Positions 7,801 to 63,856 of a stretch of 64,000 bases of DNA are shown one piece after another; within the stretch, counting starts at the first letter, position 1, and each line of letters starts with the position of its first letter. The notes beneath the pieces are model-generated. The model worked only from the letters and a program-made list of their open reading frames with translations. It ran no database searches and was not told the origin of the DNA. The stretch covers positions 1,054,001 to 1,118,000 of the forward strand of contig CM035350.1 in assembly GCA_020137815.1 (NCBI GenBank), given 5' to 3'. The position numbers were made by a program, and so were the translations under genes. Source of the DNA: Hormiphora californensis. Taxonomy: Eukaryota; Animalia; Ctenophora.

Positions 7801-10800
7801 ACCCTCCAGGCTTACTATACCCACCTACTGTACAACAGATCAATACACCAGCTGATACAGCAGTGCGGTAGTAACTCAGGGAGTTCTAATGTGGGGTGGC
7901 CCAAAACCAGCTTTTTACTGCAGTATAAGAGACCCGGAACCACTGCTACATTATTGAATACTGACAAATGGGTAGGTGATCGGCGCTATTTGATCCAATT
8001 AGTTACTATTTGATCCAATTCGTTGCTATTTGATACAGAATTTATGGTAGAAATATTTGCCATTCTATTCCTTGTTTTTCTGGTACTACTCAATATTCAA
8101 CATTCCATATCTCTCTCAGAGTGAGCAAAAGAGAGTGAGGTGTAGCTACCCCAACTGCAACAAGACCTTTGGAAGGAACGAGGAGAAGACGCGACATGAG
8201 AAGATCCACCTCGGACTGAAACCATACCAGTGTAACAAGGTAATTAGACTGACAGAACATTCTAGGATATATATTCACATTTTAGGACACTGTACAGTGT
8301 ACTCCAGGTCAGTAACGGATAGCAGCGTGTTCTACAGAAACCATGGCACACTTTGTTCGACCCTCTCTCAAGGGTTAGAACAAGCAAAATCAGCGGGATG
8401 TAATCTAATAAAACCCCTCCCCCTCTCTCCAGTGTTATAAGAAGTTTGGTAGGAAGGATCACTTGAAGCAACATGACAGGACTCACAGTAGGAAGGAACA
8501 GAGGAGTGAGAAGACAATGACTACGGCAGGAATGTTAGTGGGTCTTAATAACCCATGAACTATCTAGATGTGTGTAAATACTGTACAAAGAGTTGTGAAT
8601 ATGTTGTGATATTGGGAGGCGCTACTAGAGCATTCTCTAACACTTGTGACATTATTTGAATGTGACATGTGAGACCCTAACTGTACAGTGTACAGCTCAG
8701 TTATATGTGAGTTGTGACATCGCTGATTACCCCCGTAAATCGTTGTGATAATGTGATATAGTTACCTTCTCAGTTCCCAAAAGTTTCTTGTCCTCCCTGT
8801 TCTTGAGTTGTCCTGGTGCTACTGCAGTGGGTAGGCCACTATGGAACACCAGAATCTTGCCAGGTCTGTTAGCAGCCTTGAGGGCAGCACACCCTGCCTG
8901 GACTACTGGTACAAACATGCTCTCTCCCTTCTTCTGCTCTCCGTGGATGGTGGGAATTAGATCCATCAAGGTCTTGAGGTGGGTCTGGGCCTCCTCGACA
9001 GTAACCAGGAACCCATCCACTAGGGGCACAAACACCTCACTTATATCAGGGGACACCTGGTGATAGTGGGAGAGTTGTTAATGTGGAGTGGGGAGGATGG
9101 GATAATGAGAGCAGACTAGGGAGGAATTCAACATACCATCATAACGGGTTGTGCAAGGGAAGGTCGGAGATTGTAAAAGTGAAGTTGGTTAGTGTAGGTG
9201 ATGAATCCGACTCTAATGGGTGTCTTGTCCTGTCCTTCCTCTTTGGGTAGGTTAGCCAGCACAGCCGATATGTTAGATGTTAGTGTCTGGGTGGGAAGGA
9301 CGGGGTTACAGACTAGAATAGGGCAGGCAATTTGGAATAACAATTTGGATTAACAAATCCTGTAAACATGTCACGTACTAAACACACATGTTTCACAGTG
9401 AAATGTGTGGTTTACTAAGTGAAATTTTCACCACCCTCTCTCACCTGTACAACACCAGATTGGAATGATGCGAAGCTAACATCAATACAGAAGATGTAGG
9501 CGGCTGATTGTGGTAACTTGCTGCCCTTGCAGTAGTCAGTAGTGGCCAGGAACTCGTAACTGCCCCTACTAAGTTCAGGTCTCTGGTCGGTATCTGCCCT
9601 CCTACCCGTGTGGTCCAGGTTGCAGTAGTACTCAGGAGGGACCTCTGTATCAACATTACACAGATTACACACAAACTTCCGTCCCCCATCAATGAACTTT
9701 ACATGGGGGTTGATGTATGCTTTACACCTTCTACATCTCAGGGGGCCACCCATAACCGACATGTCTATACAGGCAAGGGGCGCCTCTCCTGGACTTAGCC
9801 TGGCCATGGGCTGTACTGCAAAACCTGGGGAGGGAGAGGGGAATTAGTGGCTGTTGGAGGACATGGTTGAAACAGAGAGAAGAGTAATATTGAAAATGAT
9901 ATTTTAACTTACTCATTGGCATGTTGACTTGGTTTGCAATGTCCTTGGTAGATGGGACGGTATAGAAACAGGACCGGATAAACCTAGGACTGCTGTTTCC
10001 CATATCCAGGATGGGTAATATCAGTGGTGACTAGAGGTGGTACTCCTGGAGTGCTGGTAACCCACTGCTTCCCCTCATACTGGATCCACATCTGCTTTCT
10101 GGAACTGTCAGCGGGTTGGGCATTAGGTCAGGGATCGATACGATTCCTGGGAGTCTGGGGTTGTGCTGGTGCAGGTTGGGGCATGGATGGTAGTTGACCC
10201 TGCATGCCCGCCCCTGGGTTGGCTATGATCGGGGCAGCAGGATGCCGGACTGGCTTGGGATCCAGGGGGTCCAGGAGGCGGCATCTGGGGTCCAGCTAGT
10301 GAAGCAGGAGAGTTGACACCATAGCTAGCTGTGGAGGGATATGGTCTCCTAGGTCCACCCCGGGGAGGTCCACCAGGTGGAGGTCCGAACCCTGGTTGGG
10401 ACATTGGAGGGGGCTGGCTGAACTGTGAACCCCCGAAGGCGGAGGGAGGGCCTGAGGGAGGGGCGGATCCACTTGAGATTCCTTGAAGTCCTGGTGAGTA
10501 GCTGTTTGGAGGCGGCTGAGCAAAACCGCTGTTTGGTGGCTGCAGTCCGTACGGCTGGGAGCTAGGAGGGGCGCCAAATGGAGCTGGTTGGGAGCTAGGA
10601 GGGGCGCCAAATGGAGCCGGCTGGGAGCTAGGAGGGGCGCCAAATGGAGCTGGCTGGGAGCTAGGAGGGGCGCCAAATGGAGGCGGCTGGGAGCTAGGAG
10701 GGGCGCCAAATGGAGGCGGCTGGGAGCTAGGAGGGGCGCCAAATGGAGGCGGCTGGGAACTGGGCGGGGCGCCAAATGGAGCCGGCTGGGAGCTAGGAGG

Positions 10801-12120
10801 GGCGCCAAATGGAGCCGGCTGGGAGCTAGGCGGGGCGCCAAATGGAGTTGGCTGGGAGCTGGGAGGGGCGCCAAATGGAGGTGGCTGGGAGCTAGGAGGG
10901 GCGCCAAATGGAGCCGGCTGGGAAGTAGGAGGGGCGCCAAATGGAGCTGGCTGGGAGCTAGGAGGGGCTCCAAATGGAGCCGGCTGGGAGCTAGGAGGGG
11001 CGCCAAATGGAGCTGGCTGGGAGCTAGGAGGGGCGCCAAATGGAGCTGGCTGGGAGCTGGGAGGGGCGCCAAATGGAGCCGGCTGGGAGCTAGGAGGGGC
11101 TCCAAATGGAGCTGGCTGGGAGCTGGGAGGGGCGCCAAATGGAGCTGGTTGGGAGCTAGGAGGGGCGCCAAATGGAGGCGGCTGGGAGCTAGGAGGGGCG
11201 CCAAATGGAGCCGGCTGGGAGCTAGGAGGGGCGCCAAATGGAGCTGGCTGGGAGCTAGGAGGGGCGCCGAATGGAGCCGGCTGGGAGCTAGGAGGGGCAC
11301 CAAATGGAGCCGGCTGGGAGCTAGGAGGGGCGCCAAATGGAGCCGGCTGGGAGCTGGGAGGGGCGCCAAATGGAGCCGGCTGGGAGCTGGGAGGGGCGCC
11401 AAATGGAGCCGGCTGGGAGCTAGGAGGGGCGCCAAATGGAGGTGGCTGGGAGCTAGGAGGGGCGCCAAATGGAGCCGGCTGGGAGCTAGGAGGGGCACCA
11501 AATGGAGGTGGCTGGGAGCTAGGAGGGGCGCCAAATGGAGCCGGCTGGGAAGTTGGGGCTCCAAAAGGTGGACTAGGTTGTGAAGGAGCTCCAAAAGGGG
11601 GTTGAGAGGAGGGCGGTTGAGGGCTCTGGTTTGATCGAGGAGATGGTGAACCATTAGAGTTGTCGAAAGGAGATGGTTTAGCAAGACCTCCGAAGGGAGA
11701 GGCACCTGGAGGTGGAGCACCAAATGGAGCCCCAGATTTAGGTGGGAAGGGAGATCCACTGGGGGTCGATGTAACAGGAGGGACGAATGGAGCACCGTTA
11801 GACTTGTCAGATAATGAAACACCCTGCATTTGGGCAGTGGGAGGTCCCCCAAAGGGAGGCCTCATACCAGATGGGGGTGGACCAGGCGGGGCTCCTCCGA
11901 AACTGGGAGGGGGCTTTCCATTAAATGATGGAGGCGGTCCATTAAAAGATGGAGGCGGTCCGTTAAAAGATGGAGGCGGTCCATTGAAAGATGGAGGCGG
12001 TCCATTGAAAGATGGAGGCGGTCCGTTGAAAGATGGAGGGGGTCCGGGAGGCCTCATACCAGGAGCTTTAGCACCAGGGGCAGGCCCCATGGTGGGAGGT
12101 CCAGAAAACTGGGTACTCAT
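4831..12120 (-). CDS. SEC24C: COPII coat protein SEC24C/D, multi-exon
   Basis: Pro-rich N-terminus, zinc finger RCRRCKAYINP...CNLC, vWA trunk (IFCIDVS, GKILVFHSGLP), beta-sandwich (LRMRTSNGLRP), helical domain (GQLILPETLKLLPLY) and gelsolin-like C-terminus (FLVEDK...YTDFLCSIHKEIR). A few single-base indels near 10100-10250. Confidence 0.93.
6258..6330. repeat. 23-bp tandem repeat in SEC24 intron
   Basis: GAGATGGGGTTAGTGGGTGATGG repeated about 3 times. Confidence 0.8.
8120..8558 (+). CDS. C2H2 zinc-finger protein, huckebein-like (EGR/KLF-related fingers), nested antisense in a SEC24 intron; 5' exons unresolved
   Basis: Exons 8120-8239 and 8433-8558 (AG/GT flanked) join to CSYPNCNKTFGRNEEKTRHEKIHLGLKPYQCNK|CYKKFGRKDHLKQHDRTH, ending in TGA. 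Confidence 0.8.
10556..11570 (-). repeat. 33-bp coding minisatellite in SEC24 (APFGAPPSSQP, about 30 copies)
   Basis: Highly homogeneous unit such as GGCTGGGAGCTAGGAGGGGCGCCAAATGGAGCC on the plus strand; a second 21-bp repeat (GPPPSFN) lies at about 11915-12040. Confidence 0.95.
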
Positions 12121-12886
12121 TAAAGCATTACCTAAACACGTGGGCGTGTTAGAGAGAAAATAGTGATGTATCCAAAAGTGGCAAAAAAATAACAATTTCT
12201 AACTAAATGGAAAATGAGAAACTAAAATGTCAACAGAAATATTGATTGAGAAGGAAGTAGAGCCTCAGGCAAAGACTCTTCTCAGGGGGCACATGCATTT
12301 TGTGTAAACATGGAGCCAAAATTAGAGCTTATTGCTAGCAAAAGGGCTGACGTGGTAGGCTCAAAAGAGCGCAAAGTTATCTCCCGACGGACCGATCCTT
12401 GGATTAAAAACGCGCAGAAAACGAACTGCGCAGTACACATGGCAGCGCAATCGTAATTTTACCGCAGAATACGGCCTCCACTCAACCAATGAGATCGGAT
12501 CGGCACCACCAGCCAGCTCAATCAATGAATTTAGTTTAGACGTGAAACAACGGGGTTTTGGTTTATTCAAAATGTTACACAAGTAAGGTGTACACGCTAA
12601 AATGCCGCGAGAAGAAAAAACGACTAGTTCAGCAACTACATCAGGCCAGTGATGTACAAACATATAGTACGGCACATGGGAAGAACCTTAGTGACATTGT
12701 GTGACAAGAAAGGTACAAAGCGATATAGCTATAACAACACCCTATTATATAATAATATTGGCCTACAAACTTCTGGTTCAGCGAGTAAATAACTCAGTTA
12801 CTTTATCTTAATTGTGTCTGTTGTATGTACCCTTACCCAAACAGCACACAGAATAAGTTACTAGATTATTCAGCATTTCTCTCTCT

Positions 12887-16495: not shown

Positions 16496-17993
16496 CATTC
16501 GTAAACATTCGTAAACATTCGTAAATAAATTTAGTATTGTACACAAAGCTTTAGCTCAAAAGGAGCCAACACTCAGATGACATGGAAAGTCAGCAGGTTA
16601 TATGTATCAGCCAAATGACAATGAAAAGCAAAACACATTTCTATGATTCGCCCATCTCTTTAAACACACTGGGGTCATTTCTCCAATCAATCAAGGAGTT
16701 ACTGTGCTCCACCCGGTAACCGCGGACAGGTGGCTGGTCGGGGATGGTGGTTAAGTAGGACCCAAGGGACTGTTTCAACTCGAGCAGTGATGTTGCCTCT
16801 CTCACTGCACGGGGTAGGGAATTCCACAACTGTGCTCCTCTAACACCGAATGATGAGTCATAAGGGCCAGATATGGATTTTTGAGCGAGGTAATTGTAAC
16901 GGGGGACCAATGCTCTGGTACCAAGACGGGTGTGCTCAGTAAACAGGAGACCCGTGCCGTTTGGAACTACATCATGAAGAACCTTCCAGACATGGATAAT
17001 CATGTATCGCTCACGACGCCGCTGGAGGGACAAGATACCAAGATGTTGGAGCCGATCCCAGTACCCCATACCGGAACAGCTCTCAATCCTACGTGTGAAG
17101 TGTCTTTGAGCCTCTTCAACCAGGGCGATATCAGACTTTTTCACCGGGCTCCATAATGGACAACAGTACTCCACCTGAGGCCTAATGATGGACTTCAGTA
17201 ACGTTAGCATAGTATCATCGGATCTATCCCGAAATACACTAAGTGCCCAGCCACTCATGCGTCTAGCCTTGGCAGTAATGCTGCCTATGTGTTCTGACCA
17301 AGTGCAGTCTGCAGATACAAGGACCCCTAGATCTCTCACAGTGAAACTTGGTGATATTGAGTCGCCTCCGGGACCATTGTAAAGATAATTGTCAGTGGAG
17401 AAAGGAAGCTCCCTCAGGAGTTGGGTGGAGCGAAGTGTATAATTTATCACCTCAAACTTATCCTGATGGAGTGACATATTGTTGTCTGAAGCCCAACGTC
17501 CAAATTCATTAAGACTCAGCTGCAGGTTATCTCTGTCGTTGAGTGACCTGATCGCTTTCCACAGCTTGGATTCATCTGCAAAAGTTAGGACTGTTCCCGC
17601 AAGAAGTGATTCAATGTCTATCATATAAACCAAGAACAGAAGCGGGCCAAGAACAGTGCCCTGGGGGACTCCACTAATGACGAGTTCCGGCCGAGACTGA
17701 ACTCCATCCACCACTACTGTCTGTATTCTAGCTGAAAGAAAGTCACTTATCCAGCGGAGAAGTCTTCCACGTATACCATACTTCTCAAGCTTGCCCAATA
17801 AAACTTTAATATCGACTTTATCGAACGCCTTCTCCATATCCAAATAAACAACATCCACTTCCAGACCGTTATTCAGTTCACGCATGATGTTGTCATAGTG
17901 GTTCAAAAGTTGGGTCAGACAACTCCTATTTCTCCGAAAGCCGTGCTGACCATGGGATGTGAGGGCAACAGGGCGATAGTTTTTAGCCTCCAT
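16496..17993 (-). mobile_element. 5'-truncated, inactive CR1/L2-type non-LTR retrotransposon (RT ORF 16641..17993)
   Basis: Motifs YRPVALTS, QHGFR, YLDMEKAFDKV, GVPQGTVLGPLLF and LWNSLP. Catalytic FADD reads FADE, and the usual spacer between YRPxxL and QHGFR is deleted. A 3' tandem tail (TTTACGAATG)x3 lies at about 16496-16525. Confidence 0.9.
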
Positions 17994-18107
17994 CTTTGAA
18001 CCCTAACGCTAAAATAGGAATTGAGATTTTGCCGCTATTTTGCCCCATCTATATTATAATTTTTTTTTTTTTTTTTTTTGGAAAAACAATTAAAAATATA
18101 TACACAA

Positions 18108-21982: not shown

Positions 21983-22628
21983 GGCGGATGTTTGTCGATG
22001 TCTGGTGTGGGACGATCAATGCACATTCAGGTTTATAGCTGAGTGTGCCTTTATCGTACTACGCATCGAGAAACATGCGCCTTTAGAGACACTTACAAAG
22101 CACCTCCAGGCGCTATGTAACTGACTTTATCGCATTTCTGTGAACGATGAAGGGTGAGATTCCCTACTACGCCTAGCTCGGGCCGGGGCTAAGGTCTACC
22201 ATATTGGTAGCTATAGTTTCTAAAGACTCTCTAGAATCCTTTTAGTGTTACAGAAGTGAGAGAGAGAGAGAGCGTGTTTATTTATTAATGTCAATTTTAA
22301 GACGACAATTAACAGGGAACTTTTATTAATGGGAAATTTTTATAAAACTGGGCATAAAAATGTTGATTATTCAATGTATTTAAAATCAAAACTTTTATTT
22401 TTAATGTGTATCTTGAGATCTTATTTTATCTTTTTTTATCGGTGTTAATTTATTGGATGTGATATGTTTTGGCTTTTTTCATTTGACAGATTTTGTAAAC
22501 TGGTGTTATTTTCCTCCTCGAACCTCATTCACTTCCCCCCTGTGGAACTAGTAACTCCCACCCCTCTCCGGTTATCAATCCCTCCCCGCGTGTACCTCCT
22601 TTTAACCCCCTCTCTCCGTATTATAGTG

Positions 22629-23626
22629 ATGGACGATTATGTAGCAGAGTTTGAGCGGAAAAGAAAGAACAGCAAAGACACCCCAGTTGCCATTCTTGCT
22701 ATTCATGTTCTTAACGATTTTGTCAGTAAGAGTAATGTGGGAACACTTCAACAACTTCTAGAACAACTCAAGGTATCAAATATTTTCAATCTTCAACATT
22801 CAATATCTCGTCCTCGTCTCTCAATCGATGCCAACTCTAACACCCCCTTCCTCTCAGGAGCTCAGTAAACAGTTGAAGGCGACTGCAGGGAGTTCCACAA
22901 CATCTGTAGCATCTGGTTGTGATCTCTTTGTACGGTTCATTACCCTCTCCCGGGGTCAGAACGCCCCCTCCTCAGAGATCGATATCTTGGAGTGCAAGGG
23001 GTTCGATCCAGTGCGGAAATTCCTGGTTGATAGGGGCAACTTGTTCATGAAGAGGTTGAAGGATTCCAGGAGAAAGATAGCCCAGTTAGCGTACCCCTTC
23101 ATCTCGGACGGGGTTACAGTTCTCACTGTCAATATCTCCCGGGTAGTTCTCGAGATCCTGATGAAGGCCCACGAGAAGGCTAAAAAGTTCAAAGTGTTGG
23201 TGACTGAGGGCGAGGAGGGGCCTCTCATGGTGAAGAAACTAAACGACCAGGGCATCCAGGCAACTCTAATCCTGGATGCTTCTATTGGTTTTGTAATGGA
23301 GCGGGTCTCATTTGTTTTAGTTGGAGCAGTGGGGGTGGTGGAGAATGGAGGGCTTATTAACAAGTTGGGGACATATCCAGTTGCTGTGATGGCTCGATCC
23401 CTCAACAAACCATTTTATGTTGCCGTGGAGAGTTTCAAGTTTTATCGGAATTACCCTCTCAGTCAGCTGGATCTACCAAATGATGCGAAGTACGAGAATC
23501 CTGAGGACACAAAACACCCTGAGGTGGATTTTACTCCCCCGAAATACATCAACAAACTGTTCACAGATCCTGGGTGTACTCACCCCCTCGGCTGTTAGTG
23601 ACGAACTGATAAAGTTGTATATTTGA
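22629..23626 (+). CDS. EIF2B1: Translation initiation factor eIF2B subunit alpha
   Basis: SVASGCDLFVRFIT, VLVGAVGVVENGGLINKLGTY, KPFYVAVESFKF and C-terminal FTD(L)GVLTPSAVSDELIKLY. Intron 22773-22857; a 1-nt insertion at about 23569. Confidence 0.95.
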
Positions 23627-23703
23627 GTGTGTGAAATAATGTGTTGTGGTTATATTTTTGTTGTTTTAAAAACGAATTACCTTTCCCGTAGCTTCCCCTT
23701 CCC

Positions 23704-26700
23704 ATGTCTGGTGCCCTAGAGATGTATAACTCTGAGGAAGACGAGACTAGTCATGGTTAGTTAGAAGAGGGATCGTGGTTAATTTATACCATGGGGCCAG
23801 GGGGGTCGTGCTTAGTTTAGCAAGGGAACAGGCCACAGGGGTCATGGTTAGTTTATCAGAGATTATTGGGGGATGTTGAGAGCATGGTAATAATGTGGGT
23901 GGGGGGTAAGTAAGGGTTAGTTGGATTTGATCGTGTGGGGATCATTATGCGTTTATGGGGGGGGGGGGGGGGGCATGGATGCAATGCAAGGGAGGGGACT
24001 CCCCTCAAGGGATATGTTTATTTAGTGAGGTTACCGTGTGTTTTATTGACTACAGGTTGTTGTTACCAAGCTTCATTCTTCTCTAAAAGTTGGAAGGCCA
24101 TGTATGGAGCACCACCACTTCTCACCAAACCTCTCTCTCTCACCATCCCTCACCCCTACTGTAAGTGCTATTTGTTCATATAGCATGCCTGATAATATAA
24201 TCTATATGTTTCAAAATTCCGAATGAAGTTTGGTTTGTAAAACAGAGAACAGGGCCTGATTCCCTAGTTCTCTAATTTACAACAATCTGTAGCCAGGATG
24301 ATCAGATCACAATACCTTTTGCGTGTTAATCCTCTGATCTATAGACACGGTAACCTCACCCACCCTTCCTATCTGACCCCTCTCTTCTGTTTCAGAGGGG
24401 AAGAAAGAGGAGGAAGATGAAGAGGATGATGAGGCCTCTGGAGAGGAGCAGTCTCGAACAGTAACCTCAGACGAGGGCTCTAACCCACCAATAATTGATG
24501 ATGGGGATGGTTTCTCTGCGAATGAGGAACTATCCCAAGATGACGAGGAGGATGAGAGGTTCTCTGATGATGAAGATGCTGCTGGGTGGACTTTTGATGA
24601 TACCCTCCAGTCACCCCCACCAGGAGATAGAACTGTGACGTCATACTCGCCAGAGAATTCGTTCCAGGGAGAGCCGACACCGCCTCACAACAGAGAGGGT
24701 GAGCCGACACCGCCTCACAACAGAGAGGAAGCCCCTGCTGAAGAGTTCGAACCAGCCGCTCCAGCTGGGGATAATACCCCCTCAGATCAACCCCTGGAGA
24801 CTCCAGAAGATTCATTCGAGGAGGGGGATAGAGAGGAGGGGGACAGAGAAGAGGGGGCTGAAAGGGAGGAAGATGAGGAGAAGGGAGAAAGTGCAGAGAA
24901 GGGAGAAGATGTTGATGAAGAAGATAAGGAAGATCTGGAGATAGATGAGGAAAGCAAACCTGATGAAGATAAGCTTTCAGAGAAGTCAGCTGGAGAAGAG
25001 AGGGATGAAGAACCAGAGAAAGAAAGAATCGAGGAACTGGATAGATTATCAGAGAAGGAATGTGAAAAAGAAGAAGAGCCTGTTGAAGAAACTCAGGAAA
25101 CAGAGAGGGTGGCATCACCTGAACCTCACGATCCGACTGGTGAAGAGGTAGAAGGTGAGAGGGAAGAGAAACCAGGTAGTCCTGAAGAAGTTGAACCATC
25201 AACTGAGGAGGCTCAACCTGAGGAGGAGGAACCACTAGACAATACTGGAGATGAAACCAAGGATGTGGAGGAGGGGGTAGTAGACAAGGAAAACGATCAG
25301 AAGCTGATAAATGATCCATTTGATATGAAGGATGACTTGAAGGAAAAGCTGACTGAGTTTGGTGTGACTGAGCCTAAGAGAGATGGTGTGTACAGATGAT
25401 AGTCTTGAGAAGGAGAGCATGGAGATAGATGAAGCAGCAATGTCTCCAGTACCCACAACAGAAGAACCCAATAGAGAGGAGGAGGAGAAGGAGGAGATAG
25501 AAGAGAAGGAGGAGCCAAAGGAAGAGGAAGAAGGGATGGTTGAGTATGAGAAGAATGGAGGTTCAGAGTCCCCTGAGTATGCCATGACACCAGATGATCA
25601 GGTATCTGAGGAGAGAGATGGACCTCACACCCCTCCCCCTGCTACATCTCCCTACAATCCTGAAGAGCCAACCTCCCCACCCTCCCAGGGCCCAGTGCAC
25701 CCCACCAGGCCGTGGACCCAGGACCCCTTCGGGACCTCACACCCCAACCGAACCCCGCCCTGTCTCAGCCGACAGATCGTTCGAATCCAACACTTCAGAA
25801 GAGGGAGGTGTGCCTCCTTTTATTATGATCACAGAGAACGAATATCTTTCAGCTGCCAAGTAAGTTCTGTCTCATTCAATATTCATTCTCCCTCAATCTC
25901 CCTGACTTTCCAGTTAATTTGATTCCCTCCTGTGTCTCTCAGACAACTGTATTGTCTCCCCTCTTCTCTCAAATAATTGCATTGCCTCTCCTCAGGAAGA
26001 GATCAAGTAGAGACAAGAAGATGGTGTGCCAGTGTGACTTTGTTGCAGAGGACCCTGCCAGCCACTGCTCTGATACTTGCCTCAACAAAGTGCTCATGAT
26101 CGAATGGTAGGTCGTGTGTGGTGCCCTCACCCCTTCACTGTACCCACTTCCCCCTCACTTCACTCTGCTATTTCAGTAACTTCCGGCATGTGTTGTGTAT
26201 CAAACCTCTTTACCCCTCCCCACTGACCCCCTTCCTCTCCCGCTATACTAACACACTGTGTTTCAGCAACTCCCGGTGTCCGTGTGGAGACCTCTGTAAA
26301 AACAAGAAGTTCCAGAAGGCTGACTACGCCCGAACTGAGCCCTTTTACACTGGAATCAAGGGCTGGGGACTCAAGGCCACCCAGGATATTATGCCTGGAG
26401 ATTTTATCATGGAGTATTGTGGGGAGGTTGTGAATCAGAGTGACTTCAAGAATAGAATGGATGCATATGGGGCACGGAGGAACAAACATTACTACTTCAT
26501 GACAATTAGTAAAGATGAGATCATAGATGCGAACAACAAGGGAAACTTGTCCAGGTTTATCAACCATAGCTGTGACCCTAATTGTGAAACACAAAAGTGG
26601 AGGGTCAATGGGGTACTGAGAATCGGGTTCTTCGCTATAAAAACTATCAAGCAAGGCTCAGAGATCTGCTTCGATTATCAGTATCAGCGATACGGGTTAG

Positions 26701-29700
26701 TGAAGTTTTATCATATTACAGCTAGGCTATTATTACAGCTATCTGCTATGTTTTAGTTGGGGTAGAATGTAGATCCCCAGTAACATGCGTAAACAACATT
26801 AAACAACACATACATTCCCATTTCCAGTGACGATGTCCAGAAGTGCTATTGTGGGAGTGAGAAGTGTAGGGGAACATTGGGCGAGAAACTCTCTGAGCTC
26901 GCACCCAAGGCCACAGATAGCCCCAAACCAGGGCGACCAGAGCGAACAGAGACAAAGAAGAAAGATACAGAGTCAGTGGAACAGGCCCTTGCTAAGATAA
27001 CCCGGACATCAGATGGTGGTCTGCTCTCCACAGATCATGCTTTGCAACTGAGTAGGCTGATGGTACAAACTGATGGAGTTGAACACAGGATTCTCATACT
27101 GAAAACACTGCAGGTATTTAAATTGTCGCGATACTAAATCACAACCCATCACCCAAATAACGTAGAATCCTAACCCACTACTATCTAGAGAACCAAGGAC
27201 CCGAGTGCACTGAAGAGGTTCCTAAGTTACCAAGGCCTCAATATTCTCTGGTCCTGGATGGTCGATGTCAGTGAGATACCTGCACGACAAAGGAACGAGT
27301 TCAAACAGGATATCATCTCTGTACTGACAAACCTGCCCATAGCTACCAAGAACGCCGTGGAAGATAGCAAAGTCATGAAGGTTAGTTAGTAATTTCATGA
27401 GAGAGTGAGGTCACCCACCCAGCGTGGTATTCCTTTATATATCCCCTCTCATTTTACAGGTGGTAAAGAAGTGGGTGGATGGGGAACAGAGTAGCAGCAA
27501 TTCATCACAAGCAGACAGTAGTGAGGAGTGTGCCCCAACAGACACTACTACTGAACAAGAGACAGACACAGAGGGAGACAAGGCAGTTGTGGACCAAGCC
27601 CAGATACTACTTGATAGTTGGGGTACACTAAAAGAGGTCTTCAAGATACCCAAGAAGGACAAGAAGGAGGGAGGTACGTTCCTAGGATCCAGACAAATAT
27701 TTCATTAATTTAGTTTCTTTACTAATAGTTTGTCCCTCTCTACAGGTGGACCTAAATCGTTCTCTCTTGGTGCGTTCCTGTCCTCCTATAACGACTCCTC
27801 TTCATCGCCCCCTCTCTCCAACTCCCCGGGGAAGAAGCCCCGACAAGAGGAGTTCCCAGAGAAGAGAGCCAGTTCCAGGGAGGGATCCTGGGATCACCTG
27901 GGCAGCAAGAGACGCAGGGATGGAGAGAGAGACAGCAGGGACAATAGGAAGAGACAATGTGACGAGAGGGAGAGGTCACGTGATAGGTCACGTGATAGAT
28001 CCCGTGAGAGAGATGACTACAGGTCCTCCTACTCAGATAGAAGGTCCCGGTTTGATGATAGGAGAGATGCTGGAGGAAGGTTCAACAGAGATCGGAGAGA
28101 TGGAGGAGGGGGGAGAAGGGACGATTATAGGTCACGAGATGATAGGGGTGATAGAGGAGGAAGGTTTGATAGCAGTGATAGGGGAGGAAGGTTTGACAGT
28201 AGGAGAGACAACTTCAATAACAGAGGCAGATCACCCCCACCCCATAGAGGCAGGGAGCCTGGTGTAGATGAGTTTGGTCGGAGTATAGAAAACAGACCCA
28301 AGGAGTTGTCTAAACCACCCAGGATGTCACGGTTCACTGATAAAACAGATGAAGATGAGAGACCACCCTCCCCTGACCAGCCCCCTCCAGAACCTGTAGT
28401 ACCAGAGAAAATGATGTCTCCAGCCCCCAAGGTGCCACCAATGAGGTATCCCCCGCCCCAATTCGAGGGGACCAGACCGCCCTGGTCTGGGAGGTTTCAA
28501 CCCCAGGGTGCAGGCTGGTGTCCCACCTATGTTCAGACCACCAGTTGGCAGGATGCCCGATCTGAGCAGCATGACCAGACCCCCTGGCATGGATCACCAA
28601 GAGTTCAATAAACCTCCCCCTGAACCCCGGGCACCCCTCATGAGGTACCGACCTGACACTAGACCACAACAGCCACCACGGTACGAATACAGGCCCCAAA
28701 CTAGACCATCTTGGAATACCCGGTATCAGGCCCCTCCACGGTTTATGGAAAGTAGACAGCAGGCCCCCAGAATGCCACTAGGTGCCACACCCCGCCTTGC
28801 CGCTGCTAGCCAACTAGGAGGGTTTGGACTCCAGCAGATGCAGCCCTTCCAGGCGGCTCAGCAGGCAGCGGCCCAGCAGGAATACTTTAAACATATTGCA
28901 GAACAGAACATGCAACAGAATATCCAGAACATGATGATGCCATCAGCAATCGCATTTGGAGGAGCTCATTTACAGGTATATAATCAGGTTTGAGGCAGTC
29001 AGGTTGTACAATAATTGTCGCGGCAGGTTCCTTCCCGCGCGGTGTATATTTGAGCTATCGCTAGTTTGAGGCGCGCTCCCAATGCTAAGCAGCAAGATGA
29101 CAGCACTTGCTGCACCACCGTCCCACAGCTGACACAGTACAAAACACAGCGGATAGCTGTCACAAACTCCACGCACAAACAAGAAATAGTTGATTGCAGA
29201 TACACTAGCAGCTAATACGTCATCTTTACAATAGGGTTCAATAAATCTCCCAGCAATCCTCTTCCTCCTCTCACTCACAGTAGTCCAATCTGTCTTCTTC
29301 ATCATTCCATGGAAGCTGTCATTTGAGTGTTCAGGGTGTGAGAGCGTCCCAGAGATATCCCTCCACTTCCTAGCACTGACACTTCCCCCACATATCACAT
29401 AGAGGGCGAGGAAGGTGGCCTCTACAGCGGGCGGGGGCTGCTTAAACGACTTGATAATGACAAGATCTCTACTGTATACATTTAGGCAATCTGCAAGAGC
29501 TCTCTCGGCAGCCATGCATGCAAACAACAAGTAACGTGTTATATCTCCTCTCTCAGGGTATGTTAGCGAGTAACGCGGCAGCACTGCAAACAGTGGCGTC
29601 TACTGCACAGCTTCCTGTGACTAAAGCAACACCATCTCCCAATCTTGCTACAATCTCTTGTGAGTAGGGACACAAAATATCAGGCTACCCAGTGAACCCC

Positions 29701-30696
29701 TTATCCCCGATATCTCACTCCTTCATCTCACTTCTTCTCTCTACCCCAGTGCACCCTTAGTAGTTAGTACACCTTTATGTCCTCGATACTAACTCTTTCT
29801 TCTCTCCTCCTCCAGTACCCCAGCACCACCCGCCTCCTCAACAACACCAGCAACATCAGCAGCATCAACCTGCCCTTCCAAAGGAGCCAGAACCGTTCAA
29901 AGCAGCCCGACCCCCTCCCACCGCTGCCCCTCCAAAACAGGAGGAGAAGAAGATGCCTCCCCACTGGAGAACAGCCAAGGATGCAGATGGGAAGACGTAT
30001 TATTATCATGCTATCACTAGGGAAACACAATGGGACCCCCCTGAGGAGCCAGGGAGCCGACCTGCTGTACCACCCGTTCAAAGTGAAACACCCGCCTCAC
30101 CAATGAAACCTGTAGTACAGCAGCAGCAGCAGCCACCCATACAGAGGGGCAGACCCAAAGAGAGCTTTGAGAGTCCCCAGAAACCACAAAAGGTAACAAC
30201 TACTAGAAAAAGTTTAGAACAGGTTTAGATGTAGTGTATAACTTCTTAGATTCGATGGTCCTAACAATTTGATCCCAATCAGATGGCTAAGAAAAGTGAG
30301 CCCCAGCCGGTTGCTCACAGCGTCGAGAAAGACATGGATCCGGCTGCTAAAAGGGCACTCAATGATTTCAAGGCCCAACTTGCCAAGGTGGTAGTGGGAG
30401 TGCTGGGAAAGTACAACAAAGTTGATTGTAATATTGGCCGCATCATGGACAGTAAAGACTTCAAATATCTTGCCAGAAAGGTAAACTCCCCCTCTTTTTG
30501 TCCCGAACCCTCTTGTGACATGTGGCCCTCTTCTAACACCTACCCCCTCTCTCAGCTGACACATGGTCTGACGGAGAAAGAGATGCAGCGCAAAGCTCCA
30601 GGAGAGTTGTGTGTTACGGACAGTCTTAAACAGAGAGTTAGGCAGTATATATCTAGTTATATGAGTAAGTTTGGTCCTATCTATCATCGGACGTAG
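23704..30696 (+). CDS. SETD2: Histone H3K36 methyltransferase SETD2/Set2
   Basis: Acidic N-terminus, AWS, SET (KGWGL...RFINHSCDPNCETQKW), post-SET CYCGSEKCRG, WW (PPHWRTAKDADGKTYYYH...TQWDPP) and SRI (DFKYLARKLTHG) domains across GT-AG exons. Confidence 0.93.
28970..29515 (-). CDS. Stand-alone dynein heavy chain stalk microtubule-binding-domain (MTBD)-like protein, nested antisense in a SETD2 intron
   Basis: ALADCLNVYSRDLVIIKSFKQPPPAVEATFLALYVI...W...L...F...D...DVLAASVSAINYFLFVRGV follows the dynein MTBD pattern; lies essentially within SETD2 intron 28976-29556. Confidence 0.65.
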   Translation of the reverse strand: MAAERALADCLNVYSRDLVIIKSFKQPPPAVEATFLALYVICGGSVSARKWRDISGTLSHPEHSNDSFHGMMKKTDWTTVSERRKRIAGRFIEPYCKDDVLAASVSAINYFLFVRGVCDSYPLCFVLCQLWDGGAASAVILLLSIGSAPQTSDSSNIHRAGRNLPRQLLYNLTASNLIIYL

Positions 30697-31185
30697 TTAG
30701 TCTGGGTGTGTATGTTTATGAGCGGGCATTTAATTTGAGATTCTGTATCTGTGTGTGCGTCTATGTGTAAGTACTTTTACTACCGGGGTTATACGAAAGA
30801 GAAAGTGTTCCCCTCATTTATCTAACGACAGTGTTATATTGCAAACCTCCCTTTTAGGAATGTATGCTTTCTTATTTTATAAACCCCATTAAACTGATTT
30901 GTTTAATTTGATTTTACAATGTGATGGGAACCAATGTGATCACAATGGGAACCAATGTGATCACAATGGGAAGTGGGAACCAGAATGTGACTTGATGAGT
31001 AAGGGGTCTCTGGCCCTCCCCTTACTCAAATTCACTACATTATCTCTTCGTGAACGAATGGAGGGCGCGAAGGTTTTATTCTTACGCTGCTGGATTCTGC
31101 GCGGCGCGAGTAAAAGTTTTCTCACAATCAAATTAAATCTGAAATTTCAACTCACAAACTTGTTTGCAGTTTCAAAAATCACGAG

Positions 31186-33684
31186 ATGGATCCGTTTCTT
31201 GTGAAAAAGATCCCTAAAGACACTGTTTCACGGCTTGAGGAGTTTGCTCTGTACCTCAGAGAAAGCAAGAAAGAGCGGAGATCATATGTCAGTGTCGTAA
31301 AAACTCTCAACGTTTTCAGAGTAAGTTGAAAACTCCTGCCAAAGTTCGATGAGTCTACTTTTCGGACTTCGGTCTCCCGCGAGAATAATGATATTGCACA
31401 CGATCAACAATTATTTTTCCTTGCAAAGCAGATACAGTTTGCAGTCAACTTTAATCCTGCATACTTCCACAGGACCTGATCTGTACTGCAGAGTGGGTTA
31501 CGGCCCGAGAGCTCATCAAGATCATCAAATGTTACTGTAAATACCTCCCACTGAGCCAAAGCAACGAAACCGATGTTAGCAACGTGGTACGGAGAATCCT
31601 CAAAATCATTCGAGAAGAGAATGCCGGCCCTGAAGCAACCAGTCTGGCTGATGGGATCTCAGCTTTCTTTAAATCGGACATGAAGCCCTCAAACCTAGGC
31701 AGGTTTGAATGCGCATGAGGGTGACTAGTTAATGATATATAGTGATTTATGTCAGGATAATATTGGAGAATAACACTGCCCCTCATCAGGTCGGACCTGC
31801 AAGACAATATCCTGAACAGTATAGTGGAACTGCTTGTTGAATTGGATACCAGCAAATCTAACATAATCAACATGGCTCTAGAACATATACACTCAAATGA
31901 GGTCAGTAGACAATCCTTCAAACTCCCTTTCTATAGCTCCCTTCTTTGGACCCCCCCCCCCTTTCGAGTTAAATAACAACCCGTTATCCAGTCATATTTT
32001 CAGCGAATCCTCACATACGGCCACTCCAACACGATACGAGATTTCCTGTTACATGGTCGGAGAGCCAGGAACTTTGAGGTGATTGTGTGTGAGAGTGGGC
32101 CCTCTCTCCAGGGACACAAGATGGCTGCTGAACTTAGTGAGGGAGGAATCAAAACTACAGTGATAGCTGACAGTGCTGCTTTTGCTATTATCCATGCAGT
32201 AAACAAGGTAAATCAATCTTGTTACACAGCGAACAATTTCCCCCTGAATCTAACTTGTAACTAGCCATCCCTGAATATCTCCATCTAAATGGTGTTGTGT
32301 TTTGCAGGTCATTATAGGAACCCATACAATCATGGCTGATGGTGCACTCCGGGCTACTAATGGGGTTCACCAGTTAGCAATGGCGGCCAAGTATTTCTCA
32401 GTCCCTGTTATAGTGTGTGCTGCACTCTACAAACTATCACCCACCCACCTGTGCTCCTATGATCCCGATGCGTTCAATAAGGTCATAGGGCCTGAGAACA
32501 TGCTGAACTTCAGTAACGCTAAACTACACTCCAAGGTTAGTGCTGAGTTAGTTGTTTTGTAACTACCATTGAGCGGGTATTGATTAGTGACATTTGTAGC
32601 CATGGTGATGAAGTTGATAGGACTGGGAGGGGGAACCAACTCAGGCAAGACAACACTCTGTACCCAACTATCTGCTGCCTTCCCTGGATCTATCCTGGTG
32701 TTTAACCAAGACAAGTATTTCAAGACCCTGGAGGAGGCAGAGAAGGTGTTCCCAGAGGGGGAGGTGAACTGGGAAACTTGCAATGCGCTACACATGGACC
32801 AGCTAGTAGAGGACGTGAAAAAGGCACGAGAGGAGAGGAAACACTCTATTATAATAGTTGAGGGGCATCTCGTCTTGTCCTACCCTCCCCTTTACAAACT
32901 ATTCAATAGGATGTTCTTTGTTACTCTGCCACTTGACATGGCTAAAACGCGACGTGACACCAGGACATATGATCCTCCCGATGGTCCGGGTTACTTTGAG
33001 AATGTTGTGTGGCCCATGTATAATGAGATATATGGGGAGGTCCGGCAAAATCCTGACCTTGATGTGACATTTCTGGATGCAACCGAACCGGATACCTGTT
33101 ACAACTTTTTAGAGCGTGTAGTAAAAAGCTATCTTGATTGAGATGAAGTTATCTAGCGGGAATTATTTACTTGAGGACTTAAAGGTTTTAGAAGGAGAAT
33201 GTAAACTGTTTTTTATGTGTGTAATTGTGCTTGTGATATGTTTTTAAATTTGATGGGTTCTCTCTTTAAAGTTTATCGACTTCATGGTGCTGTGTTCTTA
33301 GTTCCAACCTTCCCTTTAGTTCCAACCCTCCCTTTACAGGTGCTGATATCTAATCCTGATTTCGACTACGTGCCAAGTGATCTGATAGAGTTGTTTATCA
33401 CCAACACTGGTGGACATGCTCCCTCATACCTCTACAGAATCATATCAGGTACTGCACACCGCCTCTCCCAACTAGATTCATTGTACTAAATTGGTTCCTT
33501 TCCTCCTCACTCTACCCTGTTTTCCCAACCTCAGCTCTCTGAACACCATCAGTAACCACTAACCCCTCCCCCGCTAAGAGTTATAACACCCTTCATTAAC
33601 CTCTCTTCTCCCCCAGAGTTGTATCACCCTGACGACTACGACCTTGATAACATGTGTGTAGAAACTGTGGAGGATGAACTATGA
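31186..33684 (+). CDS. EIF2B2: Translation initiation factor eIF2B subunit beta
   Basis: VSNVVRRILKIIREE, ALEHIHSNE, VIVCESGP, IADSAAFAIIHAVNKVIIGTHTIMADGAL and [39 protein letters not shown]. Confidence 0.95.
32602..33141 (+). CDS. NMRK1: Nicotinamide riboside kinase (NRK/NMRK), intronless, nested on the same strand in an EIF2B2 intron
   Basis: LIGLGGGTNSGKTTL P-loop, QDKYFK, IIIVEGHL and RRDTRTYDPPDGPGYFENVVWPMY. Confidence 0.9.
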   Translation: MVMKLIGLGGGTNSGKTTLCTQLSAAFPGSILVFNQDKYFKTLEEAEKVFPEGEVNWETCNALHMDQLVEDVKKAREERKHSIIIVEGHLVLSYPPLYKLFNRMFFVTLPLDMAKTRRDTRTYDPPDGPGYFENVVWPMYNEIYGEVRQNPDLDVTFLDATEPDTCYNFLERVVKSYLD

Positions 33685-33812
33685 ATTTGATATTTTATTT
33701 TGTGTGTGTCTTATGATACGGATCTCTAATTCTTTCAATTACAGTGTTTTCCTATAATACATCTCACCACCCCAACTCCCTAAATAACCCCCATCTCTCT
33801 CTGTGTAGCATC

Positions 33813-34864
33813 ATGGCGGTGGAAGGTCGCACCGTGGCTCCCCCCGTTCGCAAAGTTATTATTCCACCCTGTGGTGCTATTCAACATTGTCGACAGCTTT
33901 CGAGAGGCGGAATGACAACTGTAAAAGAGTCATCGGAACCCTCATGGGTCGCTACGACAAGGGTGTTATCTACGTGACAGAGTCCTTTGCTGTCCTCACC
34001 AAGAGACTGATGAGGAGGTATCCATGGGGATGGATTATGCCATGAGAATCAGTGAGATGCAGAAGAAAGTTAACACGAACATGTACACGGTGGGGTGGTA
34101 CAGTAGTGGTATACAGATAAACGATTATAGCAGTCTCATCCACTCCTTCTACAAGGTCCAGTTCCCATCCCCCGTCCATCTAACTCTGGATACCGCTCTA
34201 AAGGTAACGTAACTTCAGTAATCTAAGGGTGGCTGATAACAGGTTTCGGGTCAGGTTTCATGTAACAGGTATCACGTAGCAGGGTGACAGGTAGTAGTGT
34301 TGTTCTTATCTAAACCTTTCCGTCTCAGGAGCAAAAGATGAAGATCAACACACACATCACCCTCCCTATTGGTGTGAAGAATGGAACTGAGGGGTGCATC
34401 TTTACCCCTGTCCCTCATGAAATCAAGGGATCGGAGGCTGACCAAGTGTGCCTGAAGTTCTTCCAGGGCCTCAAGGGAACCAGGAAAACGCCCAACTTCA
34501 ATGATCCAGAGCAGATAGTTCACAGTTGTGATGATATGATGACCCAAATCAATGTTATCTTGGGATACGTCAAACAGGTAACCATGGTAACCTACAAAAC
34601 ACACAATAATACTAATATGTAGCCTATAACACCACGTGGTAACCCCCTGCGTCCCTCCCACAGGTATCAGCTGGTGAGATGCCCATGGATAAGGAGGTGG
34701 GACGACAGTTGATGGAAGTAGTCCAGTCGATACCCAACCTGGAGTCGGATACCATTACCAACATGTTGAACTCTCACATGCAGGACTTATTAGCGGTGGA
34801 GTACTTGACGTATTTGACGAGACAGCAACTTGCCATTGGAGCCCGAATCAACCAGATTCTTTGA
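33813..34864 (+). CDS. EIF3F: Translation initiation factor eIF3 subunit F (MPN domain)
   Basis: HPVVLFNIVDSFERR...RVIGTLMG, VGWYS, SPVHLTLDT and NSHMQDLLAVEYL; three single-base indels in exon 1. Confidence 0.9.
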
Positions 34865-35031
34865 GGGAGTTTACATCTCTTTTAACATTCCTTGTTTTAT
34901 TTATTGAAGCCTTCCCCGGGAAACATCTTGAGTCTTGTTTCTATTAAACTCCGTGATTTTACTTGCCCCCCCCCCCCTCCGATACTACTTCAATACTGAA
35001 TAGAAGCTCAATATCTCTCACAGTTTAGGAC

Positions 35032-36568
35032 ATGGTATCTTGTGATGAAGATGATGATGAAATACCCTTTCTAATTCCAGCAGACAAACCTTCAATACCA
35101 GTCACCATAATAACAGGTAAACACACAATATCAAGATTAGAAACCACCCCCCCCCCCCCCCCCCCCGGATAATATTGAATACAACATTCTCCTTCTAGCC
35201 ATCCTTGAATACAACTCCCTCTCCTTCTAGGCTATCTAGGGGCGGGAAAGACAACACTACTGTCCTACATTCTGACAGAACAACATGGTAAAAAGATAGC
35301 AGTGATAGTGAACGAGTATGGGGAGGGAGAGGGAACGGAGCAGCCTGGAGCACTAGGTGTCGGAGAAGACAAGTAGGTAAGAGTTAACTCTTACAACTCG
35401 AGTTGTAGTTAGAGTTTTGGGGGAATGCTGCTCTCGGAGCTATATTGACACACGCCCTCCCTCCCTGATATAGATACGAGGAATGGTTAGAAATGAACAA
35501 TGGGTGTTTATGCTGTAGTGTGAAGTCTGACACGGTGATGGCACTTGAGAAACTTATGGAGAAGGCGGGGAAGTTTGATTACATTTTAATTGAAACCACC
35601 GGTTAGTAACTAACTTGTTGTTAAATGATCCAGTAGTAGCTACCTCCCCTTCTAGACAACTAACTTAGGTCATCTTGCCCTGTTAGTTCCCATTCTGAAC
35701 TCTCTCCCAGGTTTGGCTGATCCAGGAAATATTGGCCAGACATTCTGGGTGGATGAGGGTCTATCTCAGCTATATCTAGATGGTATAGTGACCATGGTAG
35801 ATACTCACAACTTCGCCCGGACTAAGAAAGAAAGTAGGGGCAGTGAGTTTGGGAGACAGATCGCACTGGCTGATGTTGTGATTCTCAACAAGATGGACAT
35901 GGTGGATCAGATGACAAGGAATCAGGTTGCAGCTGATATCAGATCCATGAATAGTGCGTGTATAGTACAGTTCACAGACCACAGCAGAGTGAACCTGGAT
36001 GGGATATTGGGAATTCAGGCTTACACCAGTGTACCCCCTCCTAGGTAAGATATTTCCAGGGAAACTATTTTCCTGAAGATCCCTGTGACACCAAGTGTAT
36101 TGACACATACCTCTCACCAGTACTGTGAAACATGAGATGTCAGAAGGTATCTCAACTATAACTCTCACTACGGAGAAAGTGTTGTGTAGGGAGGATCTTG
36201 AAAACTCCCTCCAATCCCTTCTGTGGGCCGAACAGCCTGAAACTGCCTCTGATAATAACCGGTCAGTTGATTGTACCAATTGTTTATCAAGATGTAGATT
36301 TTTCAGCAAAATTCCCCAATACTTGTGTTCCAACTCCCCCCCCCCCTATTTCAGATCACACGGTGCTGCTGATAGTGATGATATGGTGATCCTGAGAATG
36401 AAGGGTCGAGTACACACTGAGGATGGGTGGTTCATGGTACAGGGTGTAAGAGATCTGTACGAGCTCACACCGATACCTGATCCAGAGTCCCAACAACATC
36501 TTATCTTTATCGGATCACATCTCGACTCTCAGAGACTCCAAAATGTCACTAAAATGTATCCGAGATGA
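35032..36568 (+). CDS. ZNG1: Zinc-regulated GTPase metallochaperone ZNG1/CBWD (COG0523)
   Basis: [49 protein letters not shown] and CobW-C ILRMKG...VQGVRDLY. Confidence 0.92.
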
Positions 36569-62500: not shown

Positions 62501-63856
62501 TTATACAAATTAAAAACAACAGCAGTTTTTAAGGTCTATACACATGTTTCATGGTGCCCCACGAGGAGGCACCAATCATCAGTAGACAAAGATCAAAATG
62601 AGAATGAATTGGGATAAAGTATGACTCCTTCATAAAAACAGTCAGTCGAACGTTCCTATTTAGAATTAGTAGCTCCATTTCACGTCACATCTTTGTATCT
62701 TGGACCTCTAGATTCCCCAGTTTCAAAGTACGTCAACCATTTCCCTTTCTTGGAGTGTGTAATCTGTATTCCATTTTGATCATTGTTCCTCAAAACCAGA
62801 CGTCGTACGTGTCCTCAGATCCACAAGAGAGCTCAACCACAAATAAATTGAGGGAGCATTGCATTATAGCGAGTTTAGTAGATTGATGACAAGATAGATA
62901 TCCTGTCCCTTGGTCCGAGATCAACAGAGAGCTCTAGCACGGGGTTAGCCGGCGAGCAGTTTATACAAATTAAAAACAACAGCAGTTTTTAAGGTCTATA
63001 CACATGTTTCATGGTGCCCCACGAGGAGGCACCAATCATCAGTAGACAAAGATCAAAATGAGAATGAATTGGGATAAAGTATGACTCCTTCATAAAAACA
63101 GTCAGTCGAACGTTCCTATTTAGAATTAGTAGCTCCATTTCACGTCACATCTTTGTATCTTGGACCTCTAGATTCCCCAGTTTCAAAGTACGTCAACCAT
63201 TTCCCTTTCTTGGAGTGTGTAATCTGTATTCCATTTTGATCATTGTTCCTCAAAACCAGACGTCGTACGTGTCCTCAGATCCACAAGAGAGCTCAACCAC
63301 AAATAAATTGAGGGAGCATTGCATTATAGCGAGTTTAGTAGATTGATGACAAGATAGATATCCTGTCCCTTGGTCCGAGATCAACAGAGAGCTCTAGCAC
63401 GGGGTTAGCCGGCGAGCAGTTTATACAAATTAAAAACAACAGCAGTTTTTAAGGTCTATACACATGTTTCATGGTGCCCCACGAGGAGGCACCAATCATC
63501 AGTAGACAAAGATCAAAATGAGAATGAATTGGGATAAAGTATGACTCCTTCATAAAAACAGTCAGTCGAACGTTCCTATTTAGAATTAGTAGCTCCATTT
63601 CACGTCACATCTTTGTATCTTGGACCTCTAGATTCCCCAGTTTCAAAGTACGTCAACCATTTCCCTTTCTTGGAGTGTGTAATCTGTATTCCATTTTGAT
63701 CATTGTTCCTCAAAACCAGACGTCGTACGTGTCCTCAGATCCACAAGAGAGCTCAACCACAAATAAATTGAGGGAGCATTGCATTATAGCGAGTTTAGTA
63801 GATTGATGACAAGATAGATATCCTGTCCCTTGGTCCGAGATCAACAGAGAGCTCTA
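62501..63856. repeat. 460-bp tandem repeat, about 2.95 copies
   Basis: Units start TTATACAAATTAAAAACAAC at 62501, 62961 and 63421 and look identical by eye; the third is cut at a TA by a palindrome. Confidence 0.95.

Follow-up and report, generated by a model that had tools for sequence, protein, structure and literature searches.

A candidate free-standing dynein microtubule-binding domain encoded antisense in an intron of a SETD2-like gene

Can the microtubule-binding tip of dynein exist as a gene of its own? An open reading frame on the minus strand of a SETD2-like gene raises this question. It lies within a window (by which we mean the whole stretch of DNA that was analyzed) of 64,000 nucleotides, runs from an ATG at 29515 to a TAA at 28972-28970, encodes 181 amino acids with no internal stops, and contains the motif DLVIIKSFKQPPPAV...W...F...S-V-S-A. 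A preliminary description of this DNA had proposed that an antisense frame of about 180 amino acids in SETD2 fills most of a 581-bp intron and encodes a dynein microtubule-binding domain (MTBD) with a hydrophobic or unstructured tail, without an AAA ring or a long coiled coil. The frame and its placement are as described: there are 181 uninterrupted codons, and the frame (28970-29515) occupies most of the intron (28976-29556). Its extent as a protein has to be reduced, as the conserved part is only about 120 amino acids (29156-29515) and the remaining tail is common to no relative. The features are:

26100..30696, plus strand: multi-exon host gene, SETD2-like, from SET to SRI (Pfam SET, WW and SRI)
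28976..29556, plus strand: GT-AG intron of the host, 581 bp (GT at 28976, AG at 29556)
29557..29659, plus strand: host exon beside the 5' end of the ORF (contigs from X1 and X3; loose ends at 29659 match the next exon)
29156..29515, minus strand: conserved coding region, residues 1-120, matched by profile and by predicted model to the end of CC1, H1-H6, and the start of CC2 of the dynein MTBD
28970..29155, minus strand: residues 121-181 and the stop codon, treated as a read-through tail (not conserved; the stop overlaps a host exon)
29517..29519, minus strand: ATG in another frame, 4 nt before the start codon, which opens a 16-codon overlapping frame; no AG acceptor immediately precedes the start codon itself

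The host contains SET (E = 6e-28), WW (E = 4e-12), and SRI (E = 8e-14) domains, so we consider it to be SETD2-like. The host exons on either side of the 581-bp intron join in frame, and one contig from RNA run X3 spans the junction, with a short side of 19 letters (under the 31-letter bar). The conserved 120-residue part of the antisense frame lies entirely within the intron, while the last 6 nt of the frame fall within the host exon, with the stop codon 4-6 nt inside it. In simulated introns (5,000, from a first-order Markov model), frames of at least 120 codons that begin with Met arose in 2.1%, and frames of at least 179 codons arose in none. Rfam identified no RNA family in 24000-34000 of the window.

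Is the protein a dynein MTBD? Against Pfam MT (PF12777), the profile by which the preliminary description would have recognized it, neither the window protein (P0001) nor its residues 1-120 gave a match. Pfam MT does recognize other members of the family: 8 of the 15 in the alignment match at E ≤ 0.1, and one of them, P0007, is above the curated cut-off (27.7 vs. 24 bits). By itself, P0001 has no better MTBD match in the PDB than E = 0.72 (a DNAH7 MTBD chimera). In Atlas, 28 of 30 matches point to PF12777, with a top score of 0.96, but the recognition score of 1440 is under the tool's bar, so this is a weak match. A search of 1.84 billion proteins links P0001 to P0007 (E = 3.3e-7), and a profile-profile comparison of the window's group with the P0007 group gave a probability of 99% (E = 9e-18). 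The family profile (from alignment A2) matches the MTBD of DNAH10 (residues 3254-3362) across profile positions 3-115 with E = 5.3e-8. Of the 60 PDB matches shown, those at ranks 1-31 are all dynein heavy-chain chains. (One match is labelled as a radial spoke protein, but the sequence shown is DNAH10.) The paralogue P0017 has DNAH10 as its top PDB match even on its own (E = 4.4e-7); IDAf-alpha follows at rank 7. A FADD death-domain identity, suggested by profile matches with E ≥ 0.05, was rejected, as the fold search gave no backing for it.

The predicted structure points the same way. A model of residues 1-120 (pLDDT 87, pTM 0.84) superposes in VIA on mouse dynein 3285-3400 with Z = 14.6 and an rmsd of 2.0 Å over 113 residues. 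Across 127 aligned chains, the 12 with Z ≥ 5 are all dynein MTBDs, and the best other chain has Z = 2.6. In Foldseek, the 31 matches shown above rank 34 are all dynein chains or heavy chains from axonemal complexes; the first unrelated match has a probability of 0.05, and just one of the 66 matches has E ≤ 0.001. A model of all 181 residues, from an alignment of three sequences, has a pLDDT of 43 throughout and is uninformative, including for the tail. The comparison with dynein MTBD structures that the preliminary description had named thus agrees with the profile match to DNAH10, and on this combined evidence from profiles and modelling, residues 1-120 are a divergent dynein MTBD. The predicted fold has the six helices and the ends of CC1 and CC2, but no flap and no long stalk. 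The flap of the DNAH7 and OAD-gamma MTBDs is described in PMC6629372 as an insertion of about 18 residues between H2 and H3; relative to the flap-less yeast dynein, the window protein has an insertion of only 1-2 residues, so the flap is absent. The prolines discussed in PMC4987762 are P3286 in CC1 and P3409 in CC2. The window protein starts near the first of these and stops short of the second, so it corresponds to the tip without the stalk.

The family comprises 19 sequences with cluster members, of which 14 could be aligned with residues 1-120 of the window protein (alignment A3). These 14 relatives have 111-138 residues, are 27-93% identical to the window protein, and fall into three paralogue groups, with 27-40% identity between groups. 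The closest are P0002 (93% identical, 120 amino acids) and P0003 (78% identical, 126 amino acids). More distant relatives include P0006 (138 amino acids, E = 4e-9) and P0007 (112 amino acids, E = 3e-7), which were among the seven matches of one search; P0019-P0021 are further relatives. All 14 invariant columns of the family are kept in the window protein. A tree of 16 rows does not resolve the subfamilies or their origin, as only 2 of its 13 inner branches are starred and long branches meet. MTBD modules without a motor also occur outside this animal: P0009, from Cyanophora paradoxa (1945 amino acids), carries three tandem MTBD-like modules at 1186-1649, along with DUF4062 and TPR, and has no dynein ring. 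P0008, P0010, and P0011, which came from the same search as P0006, P0007, and P0009, are repeat proteins with partial matches, and we dropped them as chance similarities. We also note that at one paralogue locus, L001, the end of the coding region is locally duplicated (2260-2340, plus strand), which makes P0017 two residues longer than the other members of its cluster.

The ends of the relatives suggest that this domain is a complete protein. In 11 of the 14, a Met start lies 4-5 residues before A6, and also in 11 of 14, the protein ends no more than three residues after the invariant C118 (2-9 residues in all 14); the background rate of a stop within three codons is 0.18. These counts are not independent trials, as the relatives share ancestry, and one of the 14 ends is confirmed in DNA. 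That is the L001 paralogue, whose single-exon frame is closed, with an in-frame stop five codons upstream and its own TAG; a gene with an asparagine synthase domain ends about 830 bp before it. There were no dynein Pfam domains in the 64 minus-strand frames of at least 45 amino acids in 22000-36000, nor in the 146 frames of at least 60 amino acids elsewhere on the window's minus strand, and the AAA matches on the rest of that strand adjoin the OB domain of a proteasome ATPase. A dynein heavy chain has an AAA+ ring, a linker, a buttress, and a coiled-coil stalk of about 15 nm in one gene. With relatives of just 111-138 amino acids, a closed frame at L001, and 210 minus-strand frames that are free of dynein domains, the claim that the protein lacks an AAA ring and a long coiled coil holds up, and judging from sequence, the protein looks stand-alone and motor-less.

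What might a dynein tip without a motor do? Dynein MTBDs bind at the intradimer interface of tubulin, and shifts in the registry of the stalk move H1 and switch the affinity, as set out in PMC6629372. The sections of PMC7042235 that concern the isolated 137-residue yeast MTBD report that it sits between registries and binds with a Kd of 6.7 uM, so a domain of roughly this length can function on its own. The same source gives the salt-bridge residues of the yeast domain as K3117, E3122, R3124, R3152, R3159, and R3201. These charged contacts, on H1, H3, and H6, correspond to S15, I20, K22, R52, S59, and A102 in the window protein, so two of the six tubulin-contact positions are kept (K22 and R52) and four differ; the mapping relies on printed alignments and structural end points, and for R3201 it assumes that the C-terminal region is free of gaps. 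By the same mapping, DNAH10, which is a working motor, keeps four of the six and also has alanine at the R3201 position. The glutamate and the basic residue of H1 are kept in all eight P0007-type relatives, but in none of the four members of the window's group.

We propose, with a probability of roughly one half, that the free-standing tip binds microtubules weakly, at the dynein footprint and independently of ATP. The gene would derive from an axonemal inner-arm heavy chain that was duplicated in part, with a DNAH10/I1-alpha-like chain as the likely source by sequence, and the nested frame would be expressed as its own single-exon transcript. As the protein has no stalk or buttress, there would be no registry switching, so any binding should be static; and with the glutamate and lysine contacts of H1 lost, it should be weaker than that of the P0007-type paralogues. 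A partner or a high local concentration would probably be needed, most plausibly in cilia. The ciliary site would follow from the DNAH10-like origin only. Against this proposal we count the changed contacts, the low conservation of H1 and H6 between subfamilies, the neutral-looking differences from P0002, the weak or absent matches of the protein on its own to Pfam, the PDB, and Atlas, and the ATG in another frame at 29517-29519.

In the main alternative, the altered contacts could instead mean that the domain still folds and stands free but has given up microtubule binding, and that it acts as a decoy or adaptor, with H5 and the H4-H5 loop as its binding face for another protein, such as a dynein light chain or an assembly factor. 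Besides the four changed contacts, H6 is without a basic residue, and conservation between the subfamilies is just 24% in H1 and 23% in H6, as compared to 38-55% in H2, H5, the H4-H5 loop, and CC2; the better-conserved positions of the H4-H5 loop and H5 include D76, V80, R84, A88, G89, and I92. There is also a precedent, in that LC1 binds the OAD-gamma MTBD via H5 and the flap, as described in PMC10205576. But LC1 uses the flap as well, which is absent here, the closest solved relative is DNAH10 and not an LC1-binding chain, and the conserved positions in H5 may be part of the structural core. Furthermore, K22 and R52 are kept, R16 adjoins the position of the lost lysine, and the net charge of residues 1-120 is +3. 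We consider a loss of binding to be possible but somewhat unlikely. A quite different idea is that we see a single exon here, and that the remaining exons of a larger gene, for a dynein heavy chain or a fusion protein, are located beyond the intron. There is an acceptor-like site upstream of the frame at 29584, there are an acceptor-like site (29491) and a donor-like site (29278) inside it, and the stop-to-stop frame extends to 29599; the ATG of the L001 paralogue is directly preceded by AG; and P0009, with its three modules, illustrates that longer non-motor proteins with MTBD modules exist. Yet the position of the Met and the early stop are conserved across relatives that are 27-93% identical, conserved residues flank the internal splice-like sites on both sides, and the minus strand of the window has no dynein domains. 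The AG in L001 is just as compatible with a 5' leader or a trans-splice acceptor. Also, none of 7,997 candidates was a relative of 243-2000 amino acids at E ≤ 0.001, although this is a weak test by the tool's own account, and full-length dyneins are outside that size range. On balance, we think it very improbable that the frame is an exon of a larger gene.

The tail raises another doubt about a free-standing binder, namely that a once functional paralogue is decaying in this lineage, with the read-through tail and the lost contacts reflecting relaxed selection. Residues 122-181 are absent from every relative, and 63 residues follow C118 in the window protein, as compared to 2-9 in the relatives. 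The last residues of P0003 (CVSC) can be read in the window only in another frame, so the reading frame after residue 121 is not conserved. P0003 has a tyrosine at 121 too, so the simple loss of a stop at codon 121 is not established. Stop-free runs of at least 63 codons start from 11% of random positions in the window. We treat the tail as a lineage-specific read-through, which may be an allele, a trait of the species, or an error in the assembly; with no relative that shares it, the suggestion that a hydrophobic or unstructured tail is a functional part of the protein does not stand. Also consistent with decay, the window protein has T75 where the relatives have L or F, and its eight differences from P0002 are no more conservative than neutral changes (P = 0.56, with low power). 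However, judged against P0003, most of the differences between P0001 and P0002 did not occur on the window's branch. The frame is intact for 120 codons and the 14 invariant columns are all kept, although an open frame by itself is weak evidence of constraint (P = 0.30 without indels). More informative are the 26 differences from P0003 across 118 positions, which are more conservative than simulated neutral changes (mean BLOSUM score of +0.38 vs. -0.54, P = 0.003; these tests are a protein-level proxy for constraint). A decaying paralogue therefore seems quite improbable to us.

SETD2 methylates tubulin in mammals, and the preliminary description had raised the idea of a link between this activity and the nested domain. 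We rejected a functional link, as we found no supporting evidence for it. Three other intronic ORFs lie in this window, inside introns of other genes, and the L001 paralogue adjoins the gene with the asparagine synthase domain and not SETD2. Because nested genes are common here, a functional connection to SETD2 is unsupported, and the intronic position would be the product of a genome that is rich in nested genes rather than of a tie to SETD2. The parts of PMC8527503 on gene structure in Hormiphora californensis describe 2,357 nested genes in 1,654 host genes, both antisense and parallel, with small overlaps of host exons allowed, and the window has the same pattern, which hints at a ctenophore affinity. 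If the nested gene is transcribed, then its promoter or 5' leader would overlap the host exon at 29557..29659. Four sequencing runs match the window, all marine, and the best contains 10% of the sampled words. Their contig sets are shallow and unstranded: X1 and X3 give few contigs, of 151-159 nt, on host exons and none within the intron, and X2 and X4 give none at all, which does not speak against transcription at this depth. A scan of metagenomes with alignment A1 found no orthologous locus, and the ctenophore leader motif given in section 37 of PMC8527503 was not found in the window, a result that carries no information on lineage.

Some other features of the window's genes are worth recording. 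The host has a frame shift at 28446-28506 (plus strand), where the frame would be restored by a GT-AG intron of 61 nt whose pyrimidine tract is poor (this was seen by eye); otherwise it is an indel in the assembly. At 32603-33141 (plus strand), a single-exon frame with a P-loop kinase-like sequence (Pfam AAA_18) lies on the same strand as its eIF2B-family host, in an intron at about 32537-33340. It has an AG acceptor right before its ATG, as for trans-splicing, and we take it to resemble nicotinamide riboside kinase. An intronless 353-residue frame at 1966-3027 (plus strand), which has the look of a seven-transmembrane receptor, is antisense between PCAF/GCN5-like exons; Pfam gave no match for it at E ≤ 0.001. 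At 8051-8440 (plus strand), a motif that by eye resembles a C2H2 zinc finger is antisense between Sec24-like exons. (The names PCAF and Sec24 are our reading and not Pfam matches.)

How does the window protein compare to known systems? The MTBD of DNAH10 (inner arm I1/f alpha; PDB 8j07_k8 3254-3362 and 9fqr_K2) is the best profile match over the whole domain and the best match in Foldseek, and like the window protein it has no flap. DNAH10 is a motor of 4,500 residues with a linker, an AAA ring, a buttress, and a long stalk, whereas the window protein is the tip alone. It is about 18% identical to DNAH10 in the structural alignment, lacks the lysine and glutamate contacts of H1, and has an insertion of about five residues between H3 and H4. 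The isolated MTBDs of cytoplasmic dyneins (yeast 6kjn, 6kjo, and 6kio; mouse 3err, 5ayh, and 6rzb) have the same fold as is predicted here and nearly equal boundaries: residues 1-120 of the model superpose on 3103-3219 of yeast dynein and on 3285-3400 of mouse dynein, with Z scores of 11.6-14.6. But those are engineered fragments, while the window frame would be a natural gene, with two of the six salt-bridge residues kept. Non-motile heavy chains, namely DNAHX (as presented in PMC11785096) and the class-12 dyneins (as presented in PMC5100056), are also derived from dynein and were retained after the loss of motor activity or of binding. As those sources describe them, they keep the ring and the tail and alter the stalk or the MTBD, whereas the window protein keeps the MTBD only. 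We considered the "MTBD-like" element named in PMC12366701 as a related case, but in the text of that source it is a TTLL motif, which is unrelated.

In a literature search that was mainly of open-access journals, we found no description of a natural MTBD-only protein, so this is apparently an undescribed, natural free-standing form of a known domain. The MTBD has been described so far as a part of the dynein motor, and a gene for the tip only would show its reuse as an independent module in an animal. The paralogues, which are small and soluble and have more or fewer tubulin contacts, offer a ready comparison for microtubule binding and for competition with dynein. The nested antisense arrangement is nothing unusual in this genome and contributes little. 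A bolder proposal, which we think is doubtful, is that at least three diverged paralogue groups of dynein-tip microproteins with graded tubulin contacts occupy dynein footprints on the microtubules of cilia and tune or brake beating, or hold partners of dynein, without ATP, and that they belong to a broader group of eukaryotic MTBD proteins that have no motor and are as yet undescribed. If this is true, and if the animal is a ctenophore, then dynein-tip microproteins would be candidate regulators of comb-plate cilia.

Repetitive sequences are also present in the window. A LINE-like element has a reverse-transcriptase frame at 16641-18002 (minus strand; Pfam RVT_1, E = 2.5e-18). The Sec24-like N-terminal exon at 10123-12198 (minus strand) contains dozens of near-perfect proline-rich repeats of 11 residues. 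At the end of the window, three identical frames of 92 amino acids, spaced at 460 bp, form a tandem repeat array (62608-63806, plus strand).
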